This document shows, in pieces, positions 5,433-41,845 of a DNA stretch of 64,000 bases. The notes beneath the pieces were generated by a model. That model saw only the letters and a program-made list of their open reading frames with translations. It ran no database searches and had not been told where the DNA came from. This DNA comes from an uncultured Actinomycetes bacterium (GTDB lineage Bacteria; Actinomycetota; Coriobacteriia; Coriobacteriales; Atopobiaceae): positions 4,893 through 68,892 of the forward strand of contig OMWB01000010.1 in assembly GCA_900314645.1 (NCBI GenBank), written 5' to 3'. The stretch's first letter is position 1. Every line of letters starts with the position of its first letter. The position numbers and the translations under genes are program-made.

Positions 5433-5830
5433 CTTCATGCGAATGTTGACATCCCAAGGCCTTTCTCGGTCAACAACAGCTGGAAGAGCGGGGTGGGAGA
5501 GAGCGCACACCCTCCTGCCAATCCGGACGTTTCTCGGCAGGTTTTGGTCCGAATGAGTTGGCCCCCCGCCCAACCGGTCGCTCCAGCTCCCTCAATCGTC
5601 CAGTTGAGCAGGTTCTCCGCCCATCCGGACGTTTGGAGCCCCCCGTTCGACTGATTGCGCTGGTTTCCCGCCCAACCGGACGTTCCAGCCCTCCCGTTCG
5701 ACTGATTGAGCAGGTTTCCCGCCCGACCAGACGTTCTGGGCCCCGCTTGGCCCGATCGGCCCCCCACCCATTGCGAATGTTGACCTAAACGGCCGCCGTC
5801 GAAACGTCAACAACAGCCGGTCCCAGCCCC
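5433..5830. repeat. Composite intergenic repeat block: M unit, F hairpin, 4 x 51-bp tandem repeat, M unit
   Basis: M unit at 5433-5500, F hairpin at 5519-5560, and M unit at 5766-5820. The anchor ccgcccaaccgg/ccgcccatccgg recurs at 5566, 5617, 5668 and 5719, a period of 51. Confidence 0.7.
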
Positions 5831-13271: not shown

Positions 13272-14240
13272 CACTACGGAGCCGGCAAGCCCCTCGAGCC
13301 CGAGGTGACGGTCTCCCTCGCGGGGGTCGAGCTCAAGCAGGACGTTAACTACGAGCTCTCCTTCTCCAACAACATCAACGCCGGCACCGCGACCGTGACC
13401 GCGACGGGCAAGGGCGGCTACGTCGGCTTCAAGGCGGCGACCTTCCAGATCGCCAAGGCGAAGCAGACCGTGACGGCTTCCAACAAGAGCGTGGCTCTCG
13501 GCTCGACGGTGAGCCTCGGTGCCAAGGCGAGCGGCGGTGGCAAGCTGACGTACAAGTCGTCTAACACGGCGGTGGCGAAGGTGAGCGCTAAGGGCGTCGT
13601 CACGCCAGTCAAGGTCGGCACCGCCAAGGTGACCATCACGGCTGCGGGGACGGCCAACTACCTGCGGGCCACCAAGACCGTCACGGTCAAGGTCACGGCG
13701 CTGAGCCTCTCCAAGGCGACGGTGGGCAAGATTGCGGACCAAAAATACGACGGTACGGCAAAGAAGCCGACGCCGACGGTGAAGGTGGGTGGCCGGACGC
13801 TCAAGAAAGGCACTGACTACACGCTCACGTACAAGAACAACCTGCAGGCTGGAACTGCCACGGTGACCATCAAGGGCAAAGGGAAGTACTCGGGCAACAA
13901 GTCCGTTACCTTCAAGATCGTGGCCATGGCGGGGACCTGGAAGAAGAGCGGGTCGCGCTGGTGGTACGAGTGGAAGGACGGTGGCTACCCGGCCAACGTC
14001 TTCCTCGACATCGACGGCAGCACCTACCGCTTCGATGCGAGTGGCTGGATGCTGACCGGCTGGCAGCAGGTTGGTGGCAAGTGGTACTACTTCGGGTCCA
14101 GCGGCGCCATGGTGAAGTCCAAGTGGGTGGGCAACTACTGGATGGGCGCCGACGGTGTGATGGCGACCAACGCCTGGGTCGATGGCGGCAGGTACTACGT
14201 CGGCTCGGACGGAGCCTGGGTGAAGGGCAAGACAAGGTAG
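13272..14240 (+). pseudogene. 5'-truncated surface protein: Ig-like repeats, Big_2-like domain, cell-wall-binding (GW/YYF) repeats. No signal peptide.
   Basis: The frame opens directly after a partial M unit (13253-13272) in the middle of a repeat (..YGAGKPLEPEVTVSLAGVELKQDVNYELSFSNNINAGTATV). Also contains LTYKSSNTAVAKVSAKGVVTPVKVGTAKVTITA. The C-terminus is WWYEW..GWQQVGGKWYYF..WVKGKTR. Confidence 0.6.
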
Positions 14241-15291: not shown

Positions 15292-15360
15292 TGGAACGGC
15301 ATTGCATTTCGTACCGCTGTTTCAGCTCTCGACCCGCGGTACCAAACCGAATAACGTTCC
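15292..15360. repeat. Family A repeat pair (1 direct plus 1 inverted 26-bp unit)
   Basis: tggaacggcattgcatttcgtaccgc and gcggtaccaaaccgaataacgttcc. Confidence 0.6.
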
Positions 15361-15373
15361 CGCCTCGACACCA

Positions 15374-15504
15374 CCCCTTGGCGAATGTTGACATCAGGAG
15401 GTCCCGCCAGGTCAACATCAGCTGAAGGACGGCACGAAAGCAACCCTTCTTCAAGCTGGTGTTGACCTGGCGGGACCTCCTGATGTCAACATTCGCCAAG
15501 GGGT
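15374..15504. repeat. Full palindromic dimer of family M (two 50-nt arms, 1 mismatch)
   Basis: ccccttggcgaatgttgacatcaggaggtcccgccaggtcaacatcagct (15374-15423) and its reverse complement at 15455-15504. Confidence 0.8.
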
Positions 15505-16141: not shown

Positions 16142-17002
16142 ATGGAGAAAAGCCAGGCGGTTGCAGAGATCAGGACCGTATTCGAGCGTGACGAGATCAT
16201 AGAGTACAACCCGGAAGACGTGGTGGAGAACGGGGACGCGCCGTTTTGCGCGGGCGTCTTCTACACCAGGCCGGGCCCGCGCGGCGACCTGCTGTGTGCG
16301 GGGGATCTGCGCGCGGAGGGCTCGCCGCCCACGCACGCGACCCTGCTGAACCTTGAGCAGCTCGTCGACATCACCTACGCATTCGTGGGCGAGGAGGGGC
16401 TGGAGATCTACTTCGAGCTCGGGGGAGATGGGGTGATCACGCACCAGGTCCGCTGGTCGTGCTCCGAGCCCGACGCCGAGACCTTCAGGCCGACGTGCTC
16501 GGAGGTCGACATCGCCTCGCTGGACACCCACAGGCGCTACCACGGCGCCTACGGCATGAGCCTGATGGAGACGCTCGCGAATGGCTACCACACGCCCAAC
16601 GTGCAGATGGCCATCGAGGAGCAGTTCGAGCACCACTTGTTCGGCAAGCGCCAGTACCCTGACATCCGGGCGCTGGAGGCCTTGGAGAAGTGCCTGCGCG
16701 CTGACGTGCTGAAGGGCGTGCAGCGCAGCGCCATGCAGTACGCGCTGCTCTGCCTGCACGGGAGCGAGGACGCGCGCTGCGTGTTCGACCGCGACATCGC
16801 GGTGCACCACGCGCTCGTGCTCGAGGGCGTACCAGCGCTGATAAGGGATTGCCTCGCGTACCACTGCTCCTGGAGGGACGTGTATGGCGGGGTGTCGAAG
16901 GCGCTGCTCGACATCGACGGGCTGGTGATTTCTGGGGAGTTGCGCGACGACTACGAGGTGACGCGCTTCGACCTGGAGTGGATTGACCGCGACGACGCGT
17001 GA
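16142..17002 (+). CDS. Conserved hypothetical protein, paralogue of 22021-22923
   Basis: 286 aa. RBS aagggga precedes the start. Collinear with the second copy (VFYT.PGPRGD.L.AGDLR, HTPNVQMAIE.QFE.HLFG, RSAMQYALL.LHGS, EGVPAL...CLAY.C.W). Confidence 0.7.
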   Translation: MEKSQAVAEIRTVFERDEIIEYNPEDVVENGDAPFCAGVFYTRPGPRGDLLCAGDLRAEGSPPTHATLLNLEQLVDITYAFVGEEGLEIYFELGGDGVITHQVRWSCSEPDAETFRPTCSEVDIASLDTHRRYHGAYGMSLMETLANGYHTPNVQMAIEEQFEHHLFGKRQYPDIRALEALEKCLRADVLKGVQRSAMQYALLCLHGSEDARCVFDRDIAVHHALVLEGVPALIRDCLAYHCSWRDVYGGVSKALLDIDGLVISGELRDDYEVTRFDLEWIDRDDA

Positions 17003-17037
17003 GGCCGCCTGTCTTCTCCCGCTGATTGATTTGCCCC

Positions 17038-17408
17038 CTACTGCGAATGTTGACAAAAACCGCCTGTTTTCGGTCAACATCAGCTGGGGCTGAGCGTGGA
17101 GGTGGAACGCCATTGCGTTTCGTGCCACTCTCGAGGTCCTGCCTGGAACCTTATTCCGCTTGGTGCCACTGTCCGAGCCCTATCTGGAACACTATTGCGT
17201 TTCGTACCACCGTTTCGGCCCTCAATCCGTGGTACCAAACTGAATACCGTTCCAGCGCCCACCCCAGCAGTGGTACCAAACTGAATACCGTTCCAGCGCC
17301 CACCCCAGCAGTGGTACCAAACTGAATACCGTTCCAGCGCTCAATTGCCCTGCACGCATCCAGCTCATTCGGACGTTTCCCGGCGCCTTTTGGTCCGATT
17401 GGGCTGGG
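17038..17408. repeat. Composite: M unit, family A mirror array (3 direct plus 3 inverted 26-bp units, period 41 bp), F hairpin
   Basis: M unit at 17038-17086. Direct units at 17103, 17144 and 17185. Inverted units at 17229, 17270 and 17311. F hairpin at 17362-17408. Confidence 0.8.
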
Positions 17409-17411
17409 CCG

Positions 17412-18278
17412 TTAGCGCTGCGGCAGGGGGATCATCACTATGGCGGTGAACACCCCGTTGCGCTCCTCAAACTGGGTAATCCCGCCGTGCCCTCGGGCGA
17501 TGTTCGTCACGATGTCGGTGCCCCATCCATGCTCGCGAAGCAGGCCGCCACGTCGGGCCGCGCCTCGCGCCTTCGCGGCCTCCGCACGGCAGGGATTGGC
17601 CACCTCGACATACAGCTGCCCCGCCTGCACCATGGAACTCACGCGCACGGTGGGGAGACTCTCAACCTCGCTGCCCTCCAGCATCGCTTCGCACTCGTGC
17701 AGCGCATTGTCGATGAGGTTGAAGAACACGGCGGCAACCTCAACATCAGGCAGCGGCAGCTCTTCAGGCAGCTTGACGTGGTGCTCAAACCCCACGCCCG
17801 CTTCGTGGCACTGGCGCTCCTTGGTCTCCAGTACCGCGGCGACTGGCACGTTATCGCAGTAAACCGTGCGCGTCTGAGACGCAATGTCCAACCCTTGCCG
17901 CAGGTGCGCGCTGGCGTCCCCGGCCTGACCCTGGTTGAGTGCCTCGCGTGCGCGGGCAAGCTCCTGGTCGACGGCACGTCCTACCTCCCGGGCGAGCGTC
18001 TGCTCGCGCTCCGTGGTGATGCGGTAGCTCTCCAGCGACCGCTCAAGCTGCGTGCTGACATCGGCGGCGTAGGCGGCCTCGGCGCGCTGCAGCGCCGCGA
18101 ACAGGTACTGCACGACGCCGGCGTCGATGACGGCAACGCCCACCGCGGCGGCAAGCGTGACGACGAGGTCGAGCGTTCGCGAGTCCTCGGGCGCTAGCGC
18201 GTGCCAATACCAGAGCAACGCAAGCTGGAGGGCATAAAACGCGCAGGTCAGCGCGATGATGACGCGGCGTCTGTTCAC
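17412..18278 (-). CDS. 2-TM protein with a long helical linker (H-box histidine absent) and a C-terminal GHKL ATPase domain of the AgrC/SpoOB-type kinase class
   Basis: N-box FFNLIDNALHE and G-box REHGWGTDIVTNIARGHGG. The linker ...LAREVGRAVDQELARAREALNQGQAGDASAHL aligns with the DHp of the three upstream paralogues but has no His at the H-box position. Its GTG start overlaps the upstream stop (GTGA). Confidence 0.75.
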   Translation of the reverse strand: MNRRRVIIALTCAFYALQLALLWYWHALAPEDSRTLDLVVTLAAAVGVAVIDAGVVQYLFAALQRAEAAYAADVSTQLERSLESYRITTEREQTLAREVGRAVDQELARAREALNQGQAGDASAHLRQGLDIASQTRTVYCDNVPVAAVLETKERQCHEAGVGFEHHVKLPEELPLPDVEVAAVFFNLIDNALHECEAMLEGSEVESLPTVRVSSMVQAGQLYVEVANPCRAEAAKARGAARRGGLLREHGWGTDIVTNIARGHGGITQFEERNGVFTAIVMIPLPQR

Positions 18279-19168
18279 TGTTCTTCTCCCATAAGTGTCT
18301 GTGCCTGAAGCTGAAGGCGCGCAAGATACTGGTCGGCGTCAGCGAAGCGCCCCTGCGCTGCCAGGCCCTCAACCACCTCCACCTGGTTTGCGATGTCGTG
18401 CCGCAGGCGGCTCATCTCCGTCGTGCGGCGGACCGAAGCCTCTATCTCGCCACGCACGTGCCGCTCCTGGCGGGCCATAGCCGCGTTGTCCGTGGCCTTG
18501 CGCGCGGCCATGGCTTCCCGTCGCGCAACGAAGATGAGGCCAGCGCAGATCGCCAGCGTGATGACGGAACACGCGAGGAGGAGCACGGGGATCGTTGCCT
18601 CATGGAGCTCCAAGGCGTTGCGCCTCACGTACAGCAGGTTGAGGAAGAGGTACGTGACCAGCGGAAGGACGATGACCGGCGGTTCCATGGTGACGTCCCG
18701 CTCATGATCGAGGTACCCGCAGAGCATGATCAGCGCCTCGTTCACGGCGATGGACAGCACGATGAGCAGGGAAAACACGGTCACCACCGAGCCGATGGTC
18801 TCGCGGTTGAGTTCGGAAGGGAAGATTTGCCCGCCCGAGATGAAGCTGTAGGTTGACCCGCCGACGTACTCGGTCACTATCGCGCCGAGACAGATGAGGC
18901 AGATCCTGACAAGGCGGGAGCGGACGGTTCCCGTCGAAAGACCTAGAGGCAAGGCGATGAGCATGGTGATCGAGGTCACGAAGCTGAGCAAACCGATGAC
19001 GATCTTGGAAAAGGGGAGGTACTTGATGAAGAAGCCAAAGCAAAAGAGGGCCAGGTGAAGAATGACGAAAAGCCTGACCGACCGCATGCGGAGGATTCTG
19101 TATGTCGCGCGCATGATGGGAAGCTCGACAAGAAGCGCGAGGAAGAAATGGAGGGCGACGTAGGTCAT
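18275..19168 (-). CDS. Polytopic (6-7 TM) sensor protein with H-box/DHp helices but no ATPase domain (paralogue 3)
   Basis: The C-terminus ARQERHVRGEIEASVRRTTEMSRLRHDIANQVEVVEGLAAQGRFADADQYL fits the SpoOB/AgrC-type phosphoacceptor helix (RHDxxN...G.....A..YL). The protein ends about 35 aa after the His. ATGA overlap with the upstream gene. Confidence 0.75.
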   Translation of the reverse strand: MTYVALHFFLALLVELPIMRATYRILRMRSVRLFVILHLALFCFGFFIKYLPFSKIVIGLLSFVTSITMLIALPLGLSTGTVRSRLVRICLICLGAIVTEYVGGSTYSFISGGQIFPSELNRETIGSVVTVFSLLIVLSIAVNEALIMLCGYLDHERDVTMEPPVIVLPLVTYLFLNLLYVRRNALELHEATIPVLLLACSVITLAICAGLIFVARREAMAARKATDNAAMARQERHVRGEIEASVRRTTEMSRLRHDIANQVEVVEGLAAQGRFADADQYLARLQLQAQTLMGEEQ

Positions 19169-20049
19169 CGGTCGCCTCCCAGCTTGCGTGCCTGGGCCTG
19201 CAGGCTCCGGAGGTACTGATCGGCCTCGGCGTAGCGTCCCTGTGCCGCGAGCTGCTCGACCACCTCGACTTGGTTCGCAAGGTCATGCCGCAGGCGGCTC
19301 ATCTCCGTCGTGCGGCGGACCGAGGCCTCTATCTCGCCGCGCACGTGACGCTCCTGGCGAATGGAAGCGGCCTGGTTGGCAGATTGGCGAGAAGCCTGGG
19401 CATCCCGCTTTGCCACGCTGATGAGGGCGAGGCTGGCCACCAGAGAAACGAATGCGTAGGCCGCCGCAACGATGTAGATGCCTGCGCCACGGTTGGGAGC
19501 CGCGTCCACGCGAAAGACGAGGGGAATGTAGAACAGGAACGAGAGGACCATCATCAGCACGCCGGGAATCTCGATCTCAGCATCGGAGCCGTCATCAATG
19601 AGCCGGCAGGCAATGACGACCATCTCCTCCACCACGGCCGCGATGGGGATGATGGCGCAGTAGATGAGGCAGATCGTCCCAGTATCGCCAGTCGCAAGGG
19701 ATGTCTGCGAAAGCTGGATGCCGGGGTGGAGGAAGATGTAGAGGAAGTCTCCCACCCCCTCGAAGATGACCGTCGCGAGGTTCACCGCAGTCATCCTGAT
19801 GAGGCGTGAACGCAGGCGCCCGCGGGAGATAACGATCGGCAGCAGGAAGTTCGTCAGGATGTTGATGACGACGATTCGCGTCACGAATGGCGTGGGGGAG
19901 AGCGAGAGGTAGTAGCTCAGGCAAAAGCACCCCAGGTGGAGCCCCACATACAAGGGATACGAGCGCATGTCGAGCACCTTGCACATGGCCCGCATGATGA
20001 TGAGCTCGAGGATGAGGCTGAGCAGTACTTGAATGACCTTGAGCTCCAT
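19165..20049 (-). CDS. Polytopic sensor protein with H-box/DHp but no ATPase domain (paralogue 2)
   Basis: Same architecture: ...SRLRHDLANQVEVVEQLAAQGRYAEADQYLRSLQ. The TM region is strongly diverged from its neighbours. Confidence 0.75.
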   Translation of the reverse strand: MELKVIQVLLSLILELIIMRAMCKVLDMRSYPLYVGLHLGCFCLSYYLSLSPTPFVTRIVVINILTNFLLPIVISRGRLRSRLIRMTAVNLATVIFEGVGDFLYIFLHPGIQLSQTSLATGDTGTICLIYCAIIPIAAVVEEMVVIACRLIDDGSDAEIEIPGVLMMVLSFLFYIPLVFRVDAAPNRGAGIYIVAAAYAFVSLVASLALISVAKRDAQASRQSANQAASIRQERHVRGEIEASVRRTTEMSRLRHDLANQVEVVEQLAAQGRYAEADQYLRSLQAQARKLGGDR

Positions 20050-20052
20050 GCG

Positions 20053-20955
20053 CTACCCCCGCGTTCCCATGGAGGGGTGCTGGCCTCCCAGCTTGCGTGC
20101 CTGAGCCTGCAAGTCTTCGAGGTACTGGTCGGCCTCATCGTAGCGCCCCTGTGCCGCGAGCTGCTCGACCACCTCGACTTGGTTTGCGAGGTCGTGCCGC
20201 AGGCGGCTCATCTGCGTGGTGCGCTGGACCGAGGCCTCTATCTCGCCGCGCACGTGGCGTTCCTGGCGAGCCACGGCCACCTGGTCGGCCGCCAGGCGGG
20301 TGGCCTCTGCGTCACGGCGCGCGACGGCAAGCAGTGCCATGCAGCTTCCCAGCGTGCAAAGGCAACAGAGGAAGCACAGGAACGGTCCCATGAGGCTGTA
20401 CACGCCCGCATCGTTGGTTCGCATCAGAAGGGCATCAAACCCGACGAACATCACGAGCGAGAGAAAGATGACGGGCGGTTCGAGCATGGCGTCGCGGTCG
20501 CGGTCGATGCGCGCGTACAGGGTGATGATGAACTCCATGACGATGCTGGCGAAGAACGCAAGCAGGGAGTAGATGACCACCACGGAAGCTATCGTGTCCT
20601 GGTTGATCTCGCTGGGGAAGAACTCGCCGCCCGAGATGAGGTGGTAGGTGGATGCTCCAACGAACTCGGTCAAGAGTCCGCCGGCGATAACTAGGACGAT
20701 GCGCGAAAGGCGTGTGAGCGCTGGGCCTCGGGACATCACGAAGGGGACTATCACGTTGGTCGCGAGGAAGAGCGCAAGCCTTATGATTCCGTTAGTGCTC
20801 GGCAGGTACCTGAACAAGAAGGAGACGCAGTCGAAAAACAGGCGCAAGGCAATAAAACGCCAGACAGAGCGCATGTCGAGCACCTTGCACATCGCTCGGA
20901 TGAGGACCGCCTCAGGAATGAGCGCAACGAGAAAGTAAATGATGTCATACGTCAT
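20053..20955 (-). CDS. Polytopic sensor protein with H-box/DHp but no ATPase domain (paralogue 1, first gene of the operon)
   Basis: Same architecture: ...SRLRHDLANQVEVVEQLAAQGRYDEADQYLEDLQ. A 3-nt gap separates it from the next gene. Confidence 0.75.
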   Translation of the reverse strand: MTYDIIYFLVALIPEAVLIRAMCKVLDMRSVWRFIALRLFFDCVSFLFRYLPSTNGIIRLALFLATNVIVPFVMSRGPALTRLSRIVLVIAGGLLTEFVGASTYHLISGGEFFPSEINQDTIASVVVIYSLLAFFASIVMEFIITLYARIDRDRDAMLEPPVIFLSLVMFVGFDALLMRTNDAGVYSLMGPFLCFLCCLCTLGSCMALLAVARRDAEATRLAADQVAVARQERHVRGEIEASVQRTTQMSRLRHDLANQVEVVEQLAAQGRYDEADQYLEDLQAQARKLGGQHPSMGTRG

Positions 20956-21099: not shown

Positions 21100-21440
21100 A
21101 CTCTTGCTCATGTTGACCTGAATTGCCTGCTTTTGGTCAACATTCGCTGGAGGGGTGTGGAGCGCTGGAACGTTATTCGGTTTCGTACCGGTCTGTGGGG
21201 TTGGCTGGAATCCTATTCGGTTTGGTACCAATCTGTGGGGGGCTGGCTGGAACGTTATTCGGTTTGGTACCACTCTGAGGGGGCTCGCTGGAACGCTATT
21301 GCGTGTGGTACCACCGTTTCGGACCTCGGTCCGTGGTACCAAACGGAATGGCATTCCAGCCCCCGTTCCGGCCGTGGTACCAAATGGAATGGCATTCCAG
21401 CCCCCGCCCCGGCCGTGGCACCAAACGGAATGGCGTTCCA
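21100..21440. repeat. Composite: M unit plus family A mirror array (4 direct plus 3 inverted 26-bp units, period 40-42 bp)
   Basis: M unit at 21100-21150. Direct units at 21166, 21206, 21248 and 21289. Inverted units at 21333, 21374 and 21415. Confidence 0.8.
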
Positions 21441-21479
21441 GCACCACTCCAAAACCGGCAGTTTCCCCTGCGTCAGGGT

Positions 21480-21580: not shown

Positions 21581-22020
21581 CCATTCCGGCGTCAGTTTCG
21601 ACCCACTTCGGTGCTCGCTCGACGCGCGCGACCGTTCGCCAAAAGAGCGAACCTCTTGCGCACAGAGGCCGCCTGAAGGAGTAATATCCATCTTCCCGCG
21701 ATTGGCGCAGCAGCCGCCTATGCGGCACGCCAGCGAGAGCAGACTCGGCTGGACATTATGAATCGCATGTGATTGCGACAATCCATCAACGTGCGGCACC
21801 GCCAACATACGGTGTCGCGTTCGCAGGCCAGGCGGCTCCGCCGTCCGGTCCGGTGATCGCATACCACGTTGTGGCCGCAGGCGCGAGAGAGGAGGGCAAG
21901 AACGTCGCACGAGACAGGGCCCGCGACCCATTCAAACGAATACCTGGTACAGAGCCTAGTGGAGATGCCTGACCTCGGTTGGGCAAGCGAGAGAACGCGA
22001 GACGCAGCGAGAAGGGAACG

Positions 22021-22923
22021 ATGATGGACACGAAAACAGCGATTGCAAAGCTCAAGACCATATTCGAAGAGGACGAAGTCACTGAGTACAGCCCGGACGA
22101 CGTGGTGCTGAACGATGGCCCCGTATGTCAGTCGGGCGTTTTCTATACCAAGCCGGGTCCCCGCGGCGACGTGCTGTGGGCGGGGGACCTCCGCGAGCTG
22201 GATAGGGCATCCACGCAGGTGCCGCTGCTGGAGCTCGGCCAGCTGGCTGACATCACGTACGGCCACGAGGACGAGGAGGAGCTGCAGATCTACTTCCAGC
22301 TGGGGGGCATGGGCGTGCTCACGCACGAGATCTGCTGGTCGTACTGCGGGCGCGACTTTGAGACGCATAGGCCGCCGACCTCGAGCGTCACGATTACGTC
22401 GCTTGCGACCCATCGGGTGTACCACGGCGGCGACGGCGCGAGCCTGATGGCGGCCCTTGCGTACGGTCCGCATACGCCGAACGTGCAGATGGCCATCGAG
22501 TCTCAGTTCGAGAAGCACCTCTTTGGCATGCAGCATTGCCCGGACACCCAGGCGCTGGTGATGCTCGAGAAGTGCCTGCATTTCGACGCGCATGCGGGCG
22601 TGCCGCGCAGCGCCATGCAGTACGCGCTGCTGTACCTGCACGGAAGCGGGGAGGCGCGCCGCATCTTTATTCGCGACGTCGTGCTGCGCGAGGCGTTGGC
22701 ACTTGAGGGCGTTCCAGCGCTGATGGCCGAGTGCCTGGCGTACCGCTGCTATTGGCGCGGCAACTATGGCGAGACGTCGAAGGCGCTGCTCGATGCCGAG
22801 GGGCTGGTGATTGCGCAGGCCATGGGGAAGGAGTACGCCGTGGAGCACTTCGACTTCGAGGCGATTAACCGCGACCGCGTGGAGGAGGAGCCCGACTGGG
22901 GCGGGCTTTCGCTGGCAGATTAG
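22021..22923 (+). CDS. Conserved hypothetical protein, paralogue of 16142-17002
   Basis: ATG at 22021 after gaaggga. Its N-terminus MMDTKTAIAKLKTIFEEDEVTEY aligns with MEKSQAVAEIRTVFERDEIIEY of the other copy. Confidence 0.7.
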   Translation: MMDTKTAIAKLKTIFEEDEVTEYSPDDVVLNDGPVCQSGVFYTKPGPRGDVLWAGDLRELDRASTQVPLLELGQLADITYGHEDEEELQIYFQLGGMGVLTHEICWSYCGRDFETHRPPTSSVTITSLATHRVYHGGDGASLMAALAYGPHTPNVQMAIESQFEKHLFGMQHCPDTQALVMLEKCLHFDAHAGVPRSAMQYALLYLHGSGEARRIFIRDVVLREALALEGVPALMAECLAYRCYWRGNYGETSKALLDAEGLVIAQAMGKEYAVEHFDFEAINRDRVEEEPDWGGLSLAD

Positions 22924-27048: not shown

Positions 27049-28584
27049 ATGATTAGGACGAAGGAACGGTTGCTCTCGGCCGTGCTGGCTCTTGTGCTGG
27101 CTACGAGCAGCCTGTCAATGAGGGCATTTGCAGAGACGGAAGCTGATTCTGTCGAAGAGGCCCCAACTGTTGAGGTCGTTGAAGCCATAACCGAAGGCGA
27201 GGTGGCGGAAGAAGACCTGTCCGCTCAGGCGTCTGAGCCAGGGGACGATTCCGTCTTAGACGAGCTCATCGTTGAAGAACCAGTCGCTAACAGCGATGAG
27301 ATGCCCGCGTCCGAGCCCGAAGACCCGCAGAATGAGCCTGATCTTCTCGCTGCTGCCACTACCGAAGACGAATACGACCACCACGACATCAGCAACGCCA
27401 CGGTGACCATCGAAGACGTGACCTACACGGGCGACTATCTGGAGCCCGTTCCCGTAGTGGTTATCGAGGGCTACCAGCTCGAGCCAGATTATGACTTCTA
27501 CTGTGACTATGAGAACAACATCGATGCTGGGACGGCAACCGTTGTCATCTACGGCACCGGGGACTTCTACGGCGACATCACCGCGAGCTTCACTATCAAG
27601 GCACGCCCAATCGCGAAGGCCACAGTGACCGGCGTTGTGAACAAGACGTACACGGGGAAGGCGCTCAAGCAAGCTCCGGAGGTTGAGCTGAACGGTCAGT
27701 ACCTTGAACTTGGCGTTGATTACACGCTCTCGTATAAAAGCAACGTGAATGCGGGGACGGCGACCGTCATCATTAAGGGCAAGGGCAACTACACGGGCAC
27801 AATTAATAAGTCGTTCAAGATTGCGCAGGCCAGCATCTCGAAGGCGAGTGTCGCAAAGGTTGGCACGCAGGCGTGGACTGGCAAGGTGATTAAGCCAAAG
27901 CCCGTGGTTAAGTATGGTGGCAAGACCATTAAGCTGGGCACGGATTACACGCTCTCGTACAAGAACAACAAGAAGGCCGGCGCGACCGCGACGATAACCA
28001 TCACCGGAAAAGGCAACTTCAAGGGGACGAAGACCGTCACCTTTAAGATTGGGCCCAAGACCGGAGCGTGGAAGAAGTCTGGCGGGCGTTGGTGGTACAG
28101 GTACAAGGACGGCACCTATCCCAAGTCCGAGTGGAAGAGGATTGACGGCTCGTGGTACTACTTCGACGGCTCGGGCTGGATGGTCACTGGTTGGCGCTCC
28201 GTGTCCGGTACCTGGTATTACTTCAACTCAGGTGGGGCCATGGTCACTGGTTGGAAGTCCATCAGCGGTTCTTGGTACTACTTTGATTCAAACGGCGCGA
28301 TGGCGAGAAACAGGTGGGTTGGCGACTACTACCTAGGCTCGAGTGGTGCGATGCTGAGGAACACCACGACGCCGGACGGATATAGGGTTGACTCGAACGG
28401 GAAGTGGATTCGCGGGTCTAGCGGCTCTGGCGGATCTGGTAGCTACGATATCGTGTACTGGGTGCCCAATGGCGAGGTGTGGCACAGTACGCCCAATTGC
28501 CGCTCCTTGGCGCGGTCAAGCGGCATTCAGAGCGGTACCATCGCGCAGAGTGGCAAGTCTCGTGGATGCAAGAACTGCACGTAA
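27049..28584 (+). CDS. Surface protein: signal peptide, Ig-like YTG...GTATV repeats, cell-wall-binding repeats, C-terminal H..C...C..C module
   Basis: MIRTKERLLSAVLALVLATSSLSMRAFA. Repeats of the form KTYTGKALKQ..V.LNG..L..GVDYTLSYKSNVNAGTATVIIKGKGNYTG. Then GWRSVSGTWYYF and GWKSISGSWYYF. Ends EVWHSTPNCRSLARS...GCKNCT. Confidence 0.75.
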   Translation: MIRTKERLLSAVLALVLATSSLSMRAFAETEADSVEEAPTVEVVEAITEGEVAEEDLSAQASEPGDDSVLDELIVEEPVANSDEMPASEPEDPQNEPDLLAAATTEDEYDHHDISNATVTIEDVTYTGDYLEPVPVVVIEGYQLEPDYDFYCDYENNIDAGTATVVIYGTGDFYGDITASFTIKARPIAKATVTGVVNKTYTGKALKQAPEVELNGQYLELGVDYTLSYKSNVNAGTATVIIKGKGNYTGTINKSFKIAQASISKASVAKVGTQAWTGKVIKPKPVVKYGGKTIKLGTDYTLSYKNNKKAGATATITITGKGNFKGTKTVTFKIGPKTGAWKKSGGRWWYRYKDGTYPKSEWKRIDGSWYYFDGSGWMVTGWRSVSGTWYYFNSGGAMVTGWKSISGSWYYFDSNGAMARNRWVGDYYLGSSGAMLRNTTTPDGYRVDSNGKWIRGSSGSGGSGSYDIVYWVPNGEVWHSTPNCRSLARSSGIQSGTIAQSGKSRGCKNCT

Positions 28585-28608
28585 GCGCTGGTAGATTGCT
28601 TAGTTATC

Positions 28609-28650
28609 GATGCCGACTGACGAGGTTCGTCAGCCGGCATCGTCTTTTTT
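28609..28650 (+). terminator. Rho-independent terminator
   Basis: 14-bp stem gatgccgactgacg / cgtcagccggcatc (1 mismatch), 5-nt loop, T6 tract. Confidence 0.7.
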
Positions 28651-28794
28651 GAGTGAGCTGCCAGCTAAAGATGCGAGCTCAAACCGCCTGATATGATGCA
28701 TAAGAATAGCAATTTTCAGCATCCCTGAGACGTCACCGGAGGAGCCACGATGCATCGCGGGAGCACCCGACTGTCCGCCATAGCGCGGAGCGGT

Positions 28795-28860
28795 CTTACT
28801 GACGGCGGCAAGTACTGGGTTGGCGCGAACGGCGCCTGGGTGAAGGGCAAGACGAGGTAG
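28795..28860 (+). pseudogene. Orphan 3' end of a cell-wall-binding-repeat gene
   Basis: ..LTDGGKYWVGANGAWVKGKTR-stop is the same C-terminal module as at 14240 and 41403. It sits inside a 36-codon ORF (28750-28860) that has a ggaggag RBS. Confidence 0.5.
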
Positions 28861-28925
28861 TCACTAAAGCTGTAGACTAAGGTAGACACTGTGCAACACA
28901 AGTCGCATGTTGGAGGTAGGTTCAA

Positions 28926-30590
28926 ATGAAGCGCAGCTCAGAAGCTTGCTCACCTCTTGTCTCCAAGGCTTTGGCGGCCGCGTTGTGTGCGGTGCTGAGC
29001 CTTACGTTCCTGGGGGTGAATGCTCGCGCAGAAGAGGCGAACGGCATCGCCGTCGAGGCTGTACAAGTTGAGCAGGTGGAAGCCCCAGAGGAGGAGTTCC
29101 TCGACGAGCTGGAGGAGGACGCCGTTGACGTCGCTCCAGAGGTCGAGCCCTCGGCTCCAGAGCAAGAGCCGGCGAGCGAGGCTCCCGAAGCAACAGAGCA
29201 GTCCGATCCTGAGCAGGAGCTCGTGCTTGAGACACAGGCAACGAGCATCAGCCTCAAGCAATGCGACATCACGTGGCCGGAGGATCAGGAGTACACCGGA
29301 CAGCCAGTGACGCCTCCCGTGACGATTACCTACAGCTGGACTACCCTGAGGGAGGGCGTCGACTATACCGTCACGTACGAGGACAACGTAGAGGAGGGCC
29401 TGGCTACTGTCACCGTTGTCGGCAAGGGCGTCTACTACGGCAGCGACTATAGCTTCTTCTGGATCAACAAGCGCCAGGTTTCCGACTGTGACATCACGTG
29501 GCCAGCCGACCAGGAATACGCAGGCAAGCCCCTCACCCCGGCCGTGGTGGTCAAGTACCACGGGGTAACGCTCAAAAAGGGGCGTGATTACACCGTTACT
29601 TATGCGAACAATGCCGAGGGCGGCCTTGCCACCGTCACCGTCGAAGGCATCGGGGTGTACGGGGGCAGCAGAGACGGTTACTTCTACATCGATGCAGTCT
29701 CGCTGTGGGATTGCAGCATCTCCAGCATCCCTGACCAGTATTTCACTGGTGAGTTTCTCAAGCCAAGGGTGACCGTGACGTGGGGCGGAGAAAAGCTGCG
29801 CGCGGGTGTGGATTACACCCTGACCTATAGGGATAACGCGGACACCGGTACCGCCTCGGTCACCATCAAGGGCAAGGGAAAGTATTACGGCGAGAGGACC
29901 GAGTATTTCAACATCGTGTTGGACGAAGGCGGATGGAAGAAGTCGGGCAACAAGTGGTGGTACAGCTACGGCCACGGCGGCTACGCCAAGTTGGTGTTTC
30001 TGTCGTTTGATGACAATACCTACTACTTTGACCAGAGCGGATACATGGTAACTGGCTGGCGCAAGGTGTATGGCAACTGGTTCTACTTCAAGTCGAACGG
30101 CATCATGGTCAGAGGCTGGCAGAAGATTGGCGGAAAGTGGTACTACTTCGACCGCGACACGGGCATCATGGCGATAGGGCTCCGCAAGCTTGGCATTGAC
30201 CGTTACTACTTTGCTTCGTCAGGCGTGATGAAGACGGGATGGCAGAAGGTGTCGGGCAAGTGGGCATACTTCACGCCGTCGGGACCCATGCCCAAGGGCT
30301 GGCAGAAGGTTGGCGGCTCGTGGTACTACTTCGATCTGGGCACCGGTGCCATGCAGACCGGATGGAAGAACATCTCGGGCAAGCGCTACTGGTTTGCGAA
30401 CTCCGGTGCGATGGCTACGGGCTGGAAGCAGATCGGTGGCAAGTACTACTACTTCGAGTCCAACGGCGTCATGGCGAAGAGCAAGTGGGTTGGCAGCTAC
30501 TACGTCCAGTCCAACGGCGTGATGGCCACCAACACGTGGATCGGCAAGTACCACGTGAACGCCAACGGCAAGTGGGACAAGACCCGGTAA
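28926..30590 (+). CDS. Surface protein: signal peptide, acidic linker, Ig-like repeats, about 10 cell-wall-binding repeats
   Basis: Signal peptide MKRSSEACSPLVSKALAAALCAVLSLTFLGVNARA. Repeats CDITWPxDQEYxGxPxTP. Then GWRKVYGNWFYF, GWQKIGGKWYYF and GWKQIGGKYYYF. Confidence 0.8.
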   Translation: MKRSSEACSPLVSKALAAALCAVLSLTFLGVNARAEEANGIAVEAVQVEQVEAPEEEFLDELEEDAVDVAPEVEPSAPEQEPASEAPEATEQSDPEQELVLETQATSISLKQCDITWPEDQEYTGQPVTPPVTITYSWTTLREGVDYTVTYEDNVEEGLATVTVVGKGVYYGSDYSFFWINKRQVSDCDITWPADQEYAGKPLTPAVVVKYHGVTLKKGRDYTVTYANNAEGGLATVTVEGIGVYGGSRDGYFYIDAVSLWDCSISSIPDQYFTGEFLKPRVTVTWGGEKLRAGVDYTLTYRDNADTGTASVTIKGKGKYYGERTEYFNIVLDEGGWKKSGNKWWYSYGHGGYAKLVFLSFDDNTYYFDQSGYMVTGWRKVYGNWFYFKSNGIMVRGWQKIGGKWYYFDRDTGIMAIGLRKLGIDRYYFASSGVMKTGWQKVSGKWAYFTPSGPMPKGWQKVGGSWYYFDLGTGAMQTGWKNISGKRYWFANSGAMATGWKQIGGKYYYFESNGVMAKSKWVGSYYVQSNGVMATNTWIGKYHVNANGKWDKTR

Positions 30591-34260: not shown

Positions 34261-34422
34261 ACCTGACGCAACAGTCACCCCCAACAAGTGATTCCTTGTT
34301 AAACCCACTCGCTGCGGCCCCAGCGGCTAATACCTCATAGTATGATTACTGGTTAGGACCTTAGCGTGGGCTCTGCCCACGGGTTTGACGTTCTGGTTTG
34401 CATCGCGTGTTGGGGAGAAGCA

Positions 34423-37400
34423 ATGAGAGAACACAAGGCGCTTCGTGCCGCACTAAGCACCATCCTGTCCGTCTCGATGGTGATGGGAAGTGTGCCCACG
34501 GCCGCAATCGCGGAGGTGTTGGACGAGGACACTCCGTCGGTTGTCGAGGTTGTTGAGGAAGGTGCTCCTGAGGAGGAGGCTGTTTCGGTAGAGGAGGAGG
34601 TTGCTCCCGAGGAAGCCACTCCGGTAGAGGAGGAGGTCGCTCCCGAGGAGGAGGCCGCCCCTGCCGAAGAGGCTACTGCAATTGAGGAGCCTGCTACCGT
34701 AGAGGAGGTCGCTCCTGAAGAGGAAGCCGCTCCTGCGGACGAGCCTGCCGCTCTCGAGCTGACGGCCGCGTCTGACGAAGAGACCATCGTCGCGACCTAC
34801 GAGTTCCCCACGACCACCACGATTGTCGACGAGGGCGAAGAGGGCGACCTCCTCGGCCGCTACGTCGAGCAGCTCTTTGAGGAGGCGCTGCCCGGCAACG
34901 ACGAGCCCACCATGACCGCGCAGATGGTCGCGCTCACGGGCATAGAGGCCACAGCCTTCGATGCGCTGGGGCCCATGATTGCCGAAATCGCTCACGGATC
35001 TCACCCGTCAACGGTGGTCGAGATTCCCCTCAGTCGAATCACAAACAAGACAAGGTTTACGGCTGCGGAGCTGGGCGTCGATTGGGTTTATAGGGACGGC
35101 CAATACAACCAGGAGGCCGTTGACGCCGCCGTTGCCATGGTACGTCCTAACACGACACTTCTGCTCAAGTATCTACTGTATTCCTATCCCTACGAGATGT
35201 ACTGGTTTGACAAGACCGCAGGCGTGCAATGTGGGGGCCCGAGGTATGGCGCTGTTTACTCGGGTGGCGAATATGCGCTGAATCTGTCGGGCAGCATTAC
35301 GTACGTCTTCGCGGTCGCGTCCGCTTACTCCGCGGGTGAAAACCTCGTGGACACTTCTCAGGCATCCAGGGCACAGGCGGCCGTCGAAAGGGCCCAGGGA
35401 ATTGCCGCGCAGGGCGCCTCGGACTCCCCGTACTACCGCCTGAAGCTGTTCAACGACACCATCTGCTCGATGGTGAGCTACAACGACGATGCTGCTGGTG
35501 ACGGGGTTGATTACGGTGACCCGTGGCAGCTCGTGTACGTGTTCGACAACGATGACACCACCAACGTGGTCTGCGAGGGATACTCCAAGGCCTTCAAGTA
35601 CCTGTGCGATCTGGCGAACATCACGGGCGTGACCTGCAGCACGATGTCGGGCACGATGGACGGTGGAACCGGTGCTGGCGCGCACATGTGGGACGTCGTC
35701 AACATGGACGACGGCAAGAACTACCTCGTGGACGTCACCAACTGCGACCAGGGTACCGTTGGCTATCCGTACCAGCTGTTTATTGTTCCGTTCAGCTCCG
35801 GTTCGGTGAGCGACGGTTACGTGTTCCAAACTGCGAGCAAGCCCATCACGTACGTGTATGACGCAGACATGTCGCAGCTCTACACCAACAGTGAGATGAC
35901 GATTTCCGACACTGAGTACGACCCGAGCCAGTACGATCCGGATGCGGCTGCGGCACAGGTCGTGATTGACCAGATTGCTGCGCTGCCTGCGGTGGCAAAC
36001 CTGACGCTGGATAACGCGAATGCGGTTTCCGCCGCGCGCGCCGCGTACGACGCGCTGACCGAGGCGCAGAAGGCGCTCGTTGCCAACTACGAGACGTTGA
36101 CTGCCGCCGAGGCCAAGATTGCCGAGCTCCAGCAGGCTGCTGAAGACGCCGCCGCGGCTCAAGGGGTCATCGAGATGATCTCGCACCTGCCTGCCGTGAA
36201 CCGACTGACACTGGGTGACCAGGGGCGTGTCGCGGCGGCACGATCCGCATATGAGAATCTAACTGAGGCCCAGCAGGCACTTGTCACCAACTACGAGACC
36301 TTGACCGCTGCCGAGGCGAAGATCGCACAGCTTCAGGCTGCCGCCGACCAGAACGCAGCGCAGCCGATCATCAACGCAATCGCAGCACTGCCCGAGGTTG
36401 ACCAGCTGACCCTCGCCAACGCCGACGCCGTCACCGCGGCCCGCACCGCCTACGACGAGCTGACCGAGGCGCAACAGGCGCTCGTCACCAACTACGAGAC
36501 CTTGTTCGCTGCCGAGGCGAAGATTGCCCAGCTCCAGCAGCAGGCTGCCGCAGACCAGACAGCCGCGCAGCAGGTCATCGATGCGATTGCCGCGCTGACC
36601 GCCGTCAATGAGCTCACCCTTGACGATGCGGCTGACGTCTCCGCGGCCCGCACCGCCTACAACGCGCTGACCGAGTCGCAACAGGCGCTCGTCACCAACT
36701 ACGAGACCTTGACCGCTGCCGAGGCGAAGATCGCCGACCTCACCGCCGCGAATGCGGTTGACGAGCAGATTGCCGCGCTGCCCGCTGTTGACGACCTCAC
36801 GCTGGGCAACGCGGAGGCCGTTGCCACTGCGAACTCCGCATACGCTGCGCTGACCGACGCCCAGAAGGCCCTCGTGCAGAACGTTGACATCCTGACCGCT
36901 GCCGCGGACAAGATCGCCGAGCTCCAGGCCGCCGCGGATGAGCAGGCCGCGAACCAGGCCGCCGCGGATTCCGTGATCGCAAAGATCGCCGCGATTCCCG
37001 CGCTGGCTGACCTCACGCTGGCCAACTCCGGCCTCGTCACCACCGCCCGCACCGCGTACGACGCGCTGACCGACGCGCAGAAGGCGCTCGTCACCAACTA
37101 CGAGACGCTGACCGATGCCGAGACGAAGATTGCCGACCTCACCGCAGCACATGCGGTCGACGAGCTGATCGCCGACCTGCCCGACACTAACGACCTCACG
37201 CTTGAGGATGCCGACGACGTGGCCGCTGTCCGTGCTTCCTTCAACTCCTTGACCGATGCTCAGAAGATGCTGGTCGAGAACCTTGACGCTCTCGTGGATG
37301 CTGAGGAGCGCATCGAAGAGCTCCAGGCAGCCGCAGCGCAGCACGAGATCGACCTTGCTGCAGCCAAGGCGGTTGACGACGAAATTGCCGACCTGCCCGC

Positions 37401-41690: not shown

Positions 41691-41845
41691 TCCGCACCCA
41701 ATGCGACCAAACCGGCCCCCACAACGTCGCAGTAGGTGCACTCCGCACCCAATGAGTCACAACACGGGGCCAAAACGTCGCATTAAGCGCGCCACGCACC
41801 TGATGCGACCAAACCGGGCTCCAAAAGGTCGCATCAAGCTCCGTC
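41691..41845. repeat. Three tandem units of about 52 bp (family E), each with an internal tgcgac...gtcgca hairpin
   Basis: ccgcacccaatgcgaccaaaccgg..aacgtcgca, then ccgcacccaatgagtcacaacacgg..aaacgtcgca, then cgcacctgatgcgaccaaaccgg..aaggtcgca. Confidence 0.65.

Follow-up and report, generated by a model that had tools for sequence, protein, structure and literature searches.

A putative split AgrC-type histidine kinase with three sensor subunits and one shared catalytic subunit in an uncultured member of the Atopobiaceae

Based on a check of the open reading frames in the window, which is the whole 64-kb stretch of DNA analysed here, we confirmed four genes on the minus strand in the order S1, S2, S3, K. 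The genes S1 (20053..20955, 300 aa), S2 (19165..20049, 294 aa) and S3 (18275..19168, 297 aa) are predicted to encode sensor/phosphoacceptor subunits, and K (17412..18278, 288 aa) is predicted to encode a catalytic subunit. On the minus strand the S1/S2 junction reads TAG-CGC-ATG, leaving a 3-nt gap, and it is followed by an ATGA overlap between S2 and S3 and a GTGA overlap between S3 and K. Both the coordinates and the junctions agreed exactly with the first-pass annotation of this DNA. No sigma-70 promoter was recognisable upstream of S1, and the candidate LytTR box of the relatives had no copy in the 64-kb window. The first-pass annotation had also noted a missing response regulator and AgrB-like gene. 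Indeed, no REC or LytTR domain was found across the 64 kb, and no AgrB-family match turned up, either for the proteins flanking the locus in the window or in the Pfam lists precomputed for related loci. AgrB/AgrD-like genes were not seen in any locus, small-peptide genes not having been searched systematically.

Hydropathy analysis gave 6-7 transmembrane (TM) segments for each of the three sensor subunits. In the AlphaFold model of S2 (pLDDT 76), seven TM helices precede a helix-turn-helix, with TM7 continuous with a helix that reaches residue 269, a turn at residues 270-272 and a second helix at residues 273-291. The H-box histidine is H254 in S1 (codon 20194-20196), H255 in S2 (codon 19285-19287) and H257 in S3 (codon 18398-18400). 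The RHDxANQ H-box was invariant in the alignment of the S family, with H-D-L-A-N in S1 and S2 and H-D-I-A-N in S3. The His-bearing subunits thus contain the motif H-[E/D]-x-x-[N/T], which is linked to phosphatase activity and serves as a criterion for bifunctional split kinases (PMC3591291). The Pfam domain SPOB_a covered the S hairpins at 27, 22 and 21 bits in S1, S2 and S3 (26.9 bits at aa 248-287 of S1, 21.1 bits in S3), just under the gathering score of 28.1 bits. As this sub-threshold helical segment is all that they share with the Spo0B type, and as they are 7-TM membrane proteins that end 39-46 residues after the histidine, the S proteins did not qualify as Spo0B-type phosphotransferases. 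None of the three has an ATPase (GHKL) domain. Hydropathy, AlphaFold, Pfam and alignment therefore agreed with the earlier description of 6-7 TM helices and an intact H-box hairpin without GHKL domain. The early stop after the histidine was also correct, but the figure of about 35 residues was slightly low, the actual numbers being 46 (S1), 39 (S2) and 40 (S3).

Hydropathy and AlphaFold (pLDDT 82) placed two TM helices in K, and Pfam assigned it a HATPase_c_5 domain (PF14501) at 33.8 bits against a cut-off of 22. The N-box lies at aa 185-195 and the HGWG motif at aa 250-253, and FFNLIDNA..E and HGWG were invariant or nearly so in the K-family alignment. This alignment contained no conserved histidine in the hairpin: REVGRAVDQ corresponds to K residues 97-105, and R101 occupies the column of the H-box histidine of canonical relatives. 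The best Foldseek matches of the K model were the cytoplasmic module of AgrC (DHp-CA, 6E52/6E95) and the AgrC CA domain (4BXI, TM 0.74). The two TM helices, the His-less H-box position and the ATPase domain had all been predicted correctly. Profile searches, proposed earlier as a check, put K above the HATPase_c_5 threshold and S1-S3 below that of SPOB_a. The lack of an ATP-binding fold in K, which would have spoken against a split kinase, was not observed, given the Pfam score and the match to the AgrC CA domain. The alignment of the K linker with the S DHp segment, however, did not hold at the sequence level, since profile comparison with hhalign covered 15 columns at a probability of 1.4% and was not significant. 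Equivalence of the two hairpins is nevertheless supported by the K model, its AgrC match and the canonical kinases in which one and the same stretch matches both the S and the K profile. In the AlphaFold models the helix from the membrane exit to the hairpin turn measures ~57 residues in K and ~58 in S.

We found the division into two proteins to be conserved in related genomes. All 30 K homologues (274-327 aa, identity down to 42%) and all 14 S homologues (293-304 aa, identity down to 32%) are stand-alone proteins, and an exhaustive profile search returned ~31 K clusters, all of 269-299 aa. In every locus examined S adjoins K, usually with translational coupling, and the gene orders, with RR for the response regulator, include K-S-RR, RR-S-K, RR-K-S, K-S-S-RR, RR-S-S-K, RR-S-S-S-K and a divergent S|RR-K, S and K being on opposite strands in one locus. 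The survey, also proposed in the first-pass annotation, recovered in addition eight natural S-K tandem fusions, which keep both TM/hairpin modules and have the H-box in the S half only; one fusion gene lies directly behind a LytTR regulator gene. Relatives with both domains on one chain are ordinary AgrC-type kinases. In these canonical 440-aa kinases, residues ~1-284 match the S profile and residues ~170-434 that of K, and 20 of 36 have RHDxxNQ in the column of K R101. In just 2 of 75 short K-like proteins is that column a histidine; K has R, A or another residue there. S and K both derive from a canonical one-chain kinase, each having kept the last two TM helices and a copy of the hairpin. 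Judging by these homologues, the split is ancient and not a lesion.

The three sensor genes have in common a 271-nt direct repeat (family D2) of 72-75% nucleotide identity, which corresponds to the DHp-coding tails of S1 (20097..20367), S2 (19188..19458) and S3 (18301..18571) on the minus strand. Amino acid identity among S1-S3 was 70-81% in the tails versus 28-41% in the TM bodies. Within one genome the tails evolve in concert, and the TM bodies follow orthology. The S3 orthologue in locus L019 has 87.5% amino acid identity. Strains were found with the arrays S1-S2-S3-K, S1-S3-K and S1/S3 chimera-K, and with hybrid tails. In two-sensor strains the S1 gene terminates in the LGGDR of S2, and one-sensor strains carry a chimera of the S1 body and the S3 tail. 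All sensor deletions are in frame and each regenerates a complete sensor coupled to K. The ORFs were intact in at least eight independent assemblies, and S1 was frameshifted in one (L024). As judged by sequence comparison, recombination within the conserved part that encodes the DHp tail connects the one-, two- and three-sensor arrays of these strains.

The usual partner is a LytTR response regulator. In the close relatives L019 and L030, whose operons are syntenic or near-identical, its gene heads the operon, and such a regulator is present at loci L001, L004, L006-8, L010, L011, L013, L017, L019, L021 and L030. Upstream of S1 in the window we identified ~11 codons reading LEVYHSTRTQGQRA*, with a shifted stop codon, that match the C-terminus of the L019 regulator (LLVYLSTRTQG*) at 9 of 11 residues. 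The DNA aligned with the regulator/sensor junction of L019 and L030, homology ending upstream of the remnant, and strains L023 and L028 carry the same remnant. The segment 20956..20996 on the minus strand is thus a putative 3' remnant of a deleted LytTR regulator gene, for which the support is only moderate because the match is so short. Such a deletion would account for the absence of a regulator from the window. The regulator-less strains all share one breakpoint, and among them K, S1 and S3 had dN/dS values of 0.11-0.23 at dS 0.2-0.3. Furthermore, in one other genome a locus with a regulator (L010) occurs together with one that lacks it (L012). In view of the purifying selection on K and the sensors, the array probably still works, with its regulator encoded at another site, but without a regulator, promoter or LytTR box in the window its expression and output in this genome remain unproven.

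Taken as a whole, the data make it likely that the locus encodes a heteromeric membrane kinase of AgrC/HPK10 descent, in which S1, S2 and S3 are alternative receptors of one shared K. This split kinase had been the central claim of the first-pass annotation, and conservation, adjacency, selection and fusions support it as far as computation reaches. The TM pair and hairpin of K would pack against their S counterparts and rebuild the four-helix bundle of the canonical homodimer, although there is no biochemical evidence for this. The ATPase domain of K would then phosphorylate the S histidine in trans, for which phosphotransfer data are lacking, and phosphorylated S would in turn phosphorylate a response regulator of the LytTR type. 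Given their very different TM bodies and near-identical tails, the three sensors would either share the one K or compete for it, and would pass different signals to a common output. As the regulator seems to have been deleted in the lineage of the window, the array would have to use one encoded elsewhere, and the number of sensors (1-3) shifts between strains by tail recombination, with an intact sensor gene regenerated each time. Trans-phosphorylation and the stoichiometry of the complex are inferred; complex formation and phosphorylation in trans have only indirect support, from adjacency, coupling, fusions and the matching hairpin geometry. For AgrC itself, trans-autophosphorylation inside the dimer is established (George Cisar et al. 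2009, as cited in PMC6066662).

Other arrangements of the same proteins have to be weighed against this heteromeric kinase. K could homodimerise by way of its His-less hairpin and each S by way of its DHp, and these dimers could dock next to each other in the membrane as a hetero-tetramer or larger array, K phosphorylating S across bundles and not within a mixed S:K bundle. Canonical DHp domains homodimerise, and docking of this kind would fit that behaviour, the presence of three sensors per K in the window, which suggests a stoichiometry other than 1:1, and the conservation of the K hairpin as a family without detectable sequence similarity to that of S. The matching helix lengths and the presence of both hairpins in the fusions are more simply accounted for by an intramolecular or heteromeric bundle but are not decisive, and we regard docked homodimers as possible, though unlikely. 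It is very improbable that S and K do not form one kinase at all, with K as a pseudokinase or ATP-dependent modulator and S as Spo0B-like phosphotransfer or phosphatase modules served by another kinase. The Spo0B-type Pfam match, the H-D-x-x-N motif associated with phosphatase activity (PMC3591291) and the missing phosphoacceptor histidine of K would be in line with this, but K has kept its ATP-binding motifs invariant, S lies next to K in every locus, mostly with translational coupling, natural fusions join exactly these two modules, and the canonical relatives with both domains are ordinary one-chain AgrC-type kinases.

The array may also be a decaying leftover of the deletion of its regulator and promoter, piecemeal loss explaining the presence of three, two or one sensors. 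The reduction of the regulator to a remnant, the lack of any regulator in 64 kb and of a promoter-like site, the frameshifted S1 in L024 and the sensor deletions among strains are all compatible with decay. We nevertheless consider it improbable, since the strains that share the breakpoint retain low dN/dS values, at least eight independent assemblies have intact ORFs, all deletions keep the frame and restore a K-coupled sensor, and loci with and without regulator coexist in another genome. Finally, apart from the superficial look of adjacent partial kinases, nothing suggests a single ordinary kinase gene broken by a recent frameshift or nonsense mutation, or an assembly artefact. Such a lesion at the ORF boundaries was ruled out by the alignment to split homologues of uniform length, and the permuted gene orders, including opposite strands, the TM pair of K itself and the recovery of the locus in independent assemblies refute both variants, leaving practically no room for them. 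The first-pass annotation had likewise argued that this is not one frameshifted kinase.

Textbook histidine kinases are homodimers in which each chain senses the signal, holds the histidine and carries the ATPase. The proposed heteromeric S/K kinase illustrates a way for several signals to be channelled into a single catalytic unit, and the copy of the dimerisation hairpin in each half would provide a model for asymmetric, hemi-phosphorylating kinase signalling. Modelling predicts that ultrasensitive or bistable behaviour is possible in split, bifunctional kinases (PMC3591291), and several sensors competing for one K would add signal competition or priority. Sensor gain and loss at the strain level suggests rapidly evolving ligand specificity, as with the agr specificity groups. 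Public data give no annotation for the S proteins, which are unnamed and below the Pfam threshold, so that two-component censuses of gut Coriobacteriia overlook the receptors and list K as an orphan "GHKL protein". More broadly, the locus could represent a widespread family of modular receptor kinases, not described in the literature searched, with one catalytic subunit for several interchangeable 7-TM receptors, a sensory repertoire edited by cassette-like recombination in the constant DHp-coding tail, so that strains have 1-3 sensors and species differ in their order, and an obligate heteromeric, intrinsically asymmetric S:K four-helix bundle of one histidine and one ATPase; the chances that this wider picture is right seem even to us. 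Such a kinase would parallel, in the DHp class, the way in which a single CheA serves many chemoreceptors, and the range of the family would cover gut Coriobacteriia and a more distant RR-S-K clade.

The first-pass annotation knew of no described system with this architecture. Split kinases as such are known (PMC3591291, PMC7656254), but for the AgrC-type multi-sensor form the statement held in the literature searched; this layout is undescribed there, and it is conserved in related bacteria. The locus resembles AgrC/HPK10 kinases (AgrC-AgrA, ComD-ComE, PlnB, FsrC) in its polytopic 6-7 TM sensors with an R-H-D-x-x-N H-box, in the HATPase_c_5 domain of K with N-box and G-box, whose best structural matches are the three AgrC entries named above, in the LytTR partner of its relatives, and in the combination of a hypervariable sensor with a conserved cytoplasmic module. 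It differs in that the kinase is divided over two polypeptides that overlap in content, each with two TM helices and a hairpin, in the presence of as many as three sensor subunits for one catalytic subunit, and in the lack of visible AgrB/AgrD-like genes and of an adjacent LytTR regulator in the window. As every family member has its histidine and its ATPase on two different proteins, and no single homodimerising chain exists, the locus is not a canonical AgrC/HPK10 member despite its descent.

The criterion for a split kinase, a phosphoacceptor histidine and an ATPase on separate polypeptides with neither protein having both, is met. In Mycobacterium tuberculosis, the ATP-binding domain belongs to HK1 and the phosphorylatable histidine to HK2. 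The system is of the OmpR class and HisKA type, a simple split without the duplicated TM/hairpin module of S and K; there is only one His subunit, and the arrangement has been reported as strain-specific and not as a conserved family trait. HK1 (Rv0600c), HK2 (Rv0601c) and TcrA are a two-component system of three genes, two for kinase-type proteins and one for a regulator (PMC3544749). Genome surveys have predicted pairs of HisKA-only and HATPase-only genes: 1.7-3.7% of HisKA proteins are without a catalytic domain and are candidates for split bifunctional kinases (Amin et al. 2013). The survey relied on the motif H-[E/D]-x-x-[N/T], which S also has. Based on SMART HisKA domains, it would have missed sub-threshold SPOB_a-like DHp proteins such as S, and it described no multi-sensor arrays or His-less partner hairpin. 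CheA3/CheA4 of Rhodobacter sphaeroides and Hik36/Hik43 of Synechocystis likewise have the phosphoacceptor and the catalytic domain on separate proteins, neither of which is competent alone, and phosphorylation in trans is followed by transfer to a response regulator (PMC3591291, PMC7656254). These are soluble proteins of the CheA class (HPt/P1) attached to chemoreceptor arrays, whereas S and K both belong to the DHp class and are integral to the membrane, the His-bearing S subunit being itself the receptor.

Based on the ORF check, four minus-strand genes form the operon: three encode sensor/phosphoacceptor subunits, S1 (20053-20955, 300 aa), S2 (19165-20049, 294 aa) and S3 (18275-19168, 297 aa), and the fourth encodes a shared ATPase (GHKL) subunit, K (17412-18278, 288 aa, GTG start). 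The coordinates of this layout in the first-pass annotation were exact. In this gene order the minus-strand junctions read TAG-CGC-ATG, ATGA and GTGA, and public sources hold no names for S1, S2, S3 or K. By hydropathy, S has 6-7 TM segments and K has 2. With Pfam, HATPase_c_5 was found in K above threshold (33.8 bits vs 22), and the C-termini of S1-S3 gave a Spo0B-type helical segment (27, 22 and 21 bits, just below the gathering score of 28.1) resembling the DHp, the two-helix hairpin that carries the phosphoacceptor His in canonical kinases; both assignments had been made earlier from the sequence by eye. The H-box His (H254 in S1, H255 in S2, H257 in S3) is followed by 46, 39 and 40 residues, so the short tail described previously was correct, although its length had been put at about 35 residues. 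A second invariant His (H234, H235 and H237; motif RQxRHV) sits 20 residues upstream within the same long helix; R231, Q232 and H235 do not vary across the close S family, and this His is missing from the more distant sensor of the related locus L017.

In the AlphaFold model of K (pLDDT 82), TM1 is followed by TM2, which extends without a break into a long helix ending at residue 115; after a turn (116-118) come a second helix (119-135) and an alpha/beta domain. Among solved structures the model came closest to AgrC, both to the cytoplasmic DHp-CA module (6E52 and 6E95, E about 1e-10) and to the CA domain (4BXI, TM 0.74). The S2 model (pLDDT 76) has 7 TM helices, with TM7 continuing through His255 to residue 269, and ends in a turn (270-272) and a helix (273-291). 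The distance between membrane exit and hairpin turn is nearly equal in the two, about 57 residues for K and about 58 for S. Nothing significant came from a fold search using the S model (top rows E 0.5 or worse, mostly generic 7-TM proteins), and PDB sequence searches with the K and S profiles gave no significant match. The first-pass annotation had aligned the K linker by hand with the DHp segment of S; this cannot stand alone, as comparison of the two profiles with hhalign was not significant (15 columns, probability 1.4%). The equivalence of the hairpins was established by third-party canonical kinases of 430-450 aa: these hit the S profile with about residues 1-284 and the K profile with about residues 170-434, bear the SPOB_a and HATPase_c_5 pair, and align their RHDxxNQ to the column of K Arg101. 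Among mid-length proteins 20 of 36 have a His in this column, among short K-like proteins 2 of 75 do, and no K half of a long protein has one. Judged by these alignments, S and K are overlapping halves of an AgrC-type kinase, each keeping the hairpin together with the final two TM helices. The library also contains full-length multi-TM AgrC-like proteins (P0082, P0095, P0104 and P0123, 430-450 aa) with Q or K at the H-box column, e.g. VRQELSSEI; these may be one-chain His-less kinases, perhaps also needing a separate His-bearing partner.

Homology searches returned 30 relatives of K (42-96% identity, 274-327 aa) and 14 of S (32-100% identity, 293-304 aa), all stand-alone, and an exhaustive K profile search of 1.84 billion representatives gave about 31 clusters, all of 269-299 aa, after which the score fell sharply. 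A metagenome scan added two short loci only. Every fetched related locus was scanned with S, K and RR (LytTR response regulator) profiles, and S adjoined K in each, in permuted order: K-S-RR (L001), RR-S-K (L004, L007, L008, L010, L021), RR-K-S (L013), K-S-S-RR (L006), RR-S-S-K (L030), RR-S-S-S-K (L019), and RR-K with S alongside on the other strand (L011). Named records come from uncultured Coriobacteriaceae, Atopobiaceae and Cryptobacterium genomes of the ruminant gut. Since the order is permuted and adjacency is conserved, a recent lesion is excluded, as the first-pass annotation had held in rejecting a single frameshifted kinase, and S and K can be argued to work together. A programmed frameshift joining S3 to K was also rejected as a requirement, because K precedes S, or S is on the opposite strand, in other genomes.

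The split is thus the conserved state among relatives, and in addition eight S-K tandem fusions (581-674 aa) were found in the representative library, six of which also passed the domain threshold applied for the S profile. Their layout is a full S module with an RHDxxN H-box, a linker, the K TM pair, the His-less hairpin and the ATPase domain. Fusion P0070 (locus L016) lies directly behind a LytTR regulator gene, and in L017, from a more distant human-gut clade, RR is followed by S (275 aa, LRHDMRNH) and a K-like protein (322 aa). Because exactly the S and K modules are fused and both hairpins are retained, the fusions argue for a physical complex, which is evidence of the classical kind without biochemical data, and by their domain layout they show the His-less hairpin to be functional, not vestigial.

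In the mechanism that we infer, the TM pair and hairpin of K would pack with those of S, rebuilding a four-helix bundle, the ATPase domain of K would phosphorylate the S histidine in trans, and phosphorylated S would hand the phosphoryl group to a LytTR regulator. The complex could alternatively be a K2/S2 hetero-tetramer. A non-kinase role is another alternative. FFNLIDNA..E (N-box), N228 and HGWG are invariant or nearly so in the K family, the helical region of which has no conserved His, and RHDxANQ is invariant in the S family.

A decaying locus is the remaining alternative, and bears on the regulator gene. Neither tblastn nor REC/LytTR profile scans found a REC or LytTR domain in the window, in agreement with the first-pass annotation, which had seen no response regulator there. 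The L019 operon, about 84-89% identical in DNA, reads RR (240 aa, LytTR)-S2'-S1'-S3'-K and that of L030 reads RR-S2''-S1''-K, the primes marking sensor counterparts; downstream genes of the window are common to L030 (cupin 89%, 205-aa protein 92% identity). The 38 nt upstream of window S1 align to the regulator/sensor junction of both operons and translate as LEVYHSTRTQG vs LLVYLSTRTQG of the regulator C-terminus, with an altered stop codon, and just upstream of them this homology stops. The match is short and gives moderate support to a putative remnant of a deleted regulator gene; other strains share both the remnant and its breakpoint. In regulator-less strains dN/dS was 0.11-0.20 for K, 0.18-0.23 for S1 and 0.12 for S3 (at dS about 0.2-0.3), indicating purifying selection on these genes since the regulator was lost. 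For the split kinase, this selection points to a regulator encoded elsewhere in the genome. Both kinds of locus can co-exist, as one MAG holds a regulator-containing (L010) and a regulator-less (L012) locus. This genome's trans-acting regulator was not identified in the database search, in which the closest regulators (93%, 83% and 82% identity) lay either on very small contigs or within regulator-containing operons belonging to sister lineages. A sigma-70 promoter scan found no site.

S1-S3 share 28-41% identity in their TM bodies, where synonymous sites are saturated, and 70-81% in their tails, which form a 271-nt direct-repeat family. Across genomes the bodies track orthology and the tails share genome-specific substitutions between paralogues, a substitution pattern by which the tails are in concerted evolution. 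The array is S1-S2-S3-K in the window and L015, S1-S3-K with S1 ending in S2 terminal residues in L023, L025, L026 and L027, S1-S3-K with a frameshifted S1 in L024, and a single chimeric sensor (S1 body, S3 tail) directly coupled to K in L028 and L029; these are independent assemblies in the same genomic context. The S1/S2 order of the window is reversed vs L019 and L030. Judging from these varying arrays, hybrid tails and the swap, recombination within the constant tail brings about gain, loss and reordering of sensors, always leaving genes intact.

A candidate LytTR box, CAAATACGG-N12-CAAATACGG, stands out in L019, L020 and L030 (written CAAATACGG-N12-CAAGTTCGG in L030), is faint or missing in more remote loci, and has no copy in the window. 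It is a direct repeat, TA[AG]CAAATACGG x2, of 9 bp with 21-bp spacing (L019 238-270), and in the three loci it precedes the regulator gene by about 143 nt. Direct repeats with 21-nt spacing are the geometry of LytTR boxes, and this position suggests autoregulation in those genomes.

Composite intergenic repeat elements (17035-17340 and 21106-21442; partial copy 15338-15504) are found on either side of the operon, each with a ATGTTGAC...GTCAACAT hairpin, 3-4 copies of a 41-42-nt unit and about 3 inverted copies. The unit core GGTACCAAACNGAATNNCGTTCCAGC occurs 11 times in the window vs 0 expected, confined to these three intergenic regions. When folded, the arrays form hairpins of great size (dG -127 and -148 kcal/mol; z -7.2 and -8.4). 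Near the locus, copies are also present in the same-species strains L015, L023, L024 and L028, and array C sits where the regulator gene would have stood. They may be a REP/MITE-like element, a terminator or protein-binding arrays, and the first is more likely than operator sites, since the arrays occur on promoter sides and also in the 3'-3' gap behind K. Intergenic tandem arrays of 51-nt period are located at 5565-5736 and 41693-41839, and the former has a motif, ...CCAACCGGACGTTCCAGCC..., that also occurs ahead of S1 in L023 and L028; this resemblance suggests a genome-wide family of related intergenic repeats.

The kinase array is bracketed by two plus-strand paralogues of unknown function (16142-17002, 286 aa; 21979-22923, 314 aa; 72% nt identity over 300 nt) without Pfam, NCBIfam or PADLOC matches, and in other strains it is accompanied by a 300-aa homologue and an AIM24-family gene. 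In L004 a 301-aa unannotated gene, whose kinship to the paralogues is unestablished, lies beside an AIM24 gene near the RR-S-K operon, among TIR-domain genes. TIR-domain proteins adjoin the RR-S-K operon in two relatives (L004 12627-13745 and 16809-19310; L030 2274-3836), which may be a coincidental defence-island setting; PADLOC gave no match for anti-phage defence. An identical 42-aa ORF (MSPDESVSSPRYSSRISLVLSFLLANLVFSHHKVPTCTMRLQ) directly downstream of K in an RR-S-K locus (L021 9811-9939, L022 4077-4205) may encode a small membrane peptide or be a spurious call. At 13305-14240, 27049-30590 and 34366-41403 the window encodes large surface proteins that carry Ig-like domains and choline-binding (cell-wall-binding) repeats; among them, a 2345-aa ORF has long tandem repeats within it (periods 183-387 nt). 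Such proteins are typical of cell-surface repertoires in gut Coriobacteriia.

Split histidine kinases are already known, Rv0600c/Rv0601c/TcrA of M. tuberculosis being a further case. The latter system is covered in PMC3544749, the CheA class is represented by CheA3/CheA4 and Hik36/Hik43 (PMC3591291, PMC7656254), and surveys have counted HisKA-only proteins (PMC3591291). In the literature searched we found no account of a split kinase of AgrC/HPK10 type, nor of multi-sensor arrays or a partner hairpin that lacks the His. According to PMC6066662, which cites George Cisar et al. 2009, AgrC phosphorylates in trans across its homodimer, and the action of K on S in trans is the proposed parallel. 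The S/K system challenges the homodimer paradigm of histidine kinases and is directly testable.
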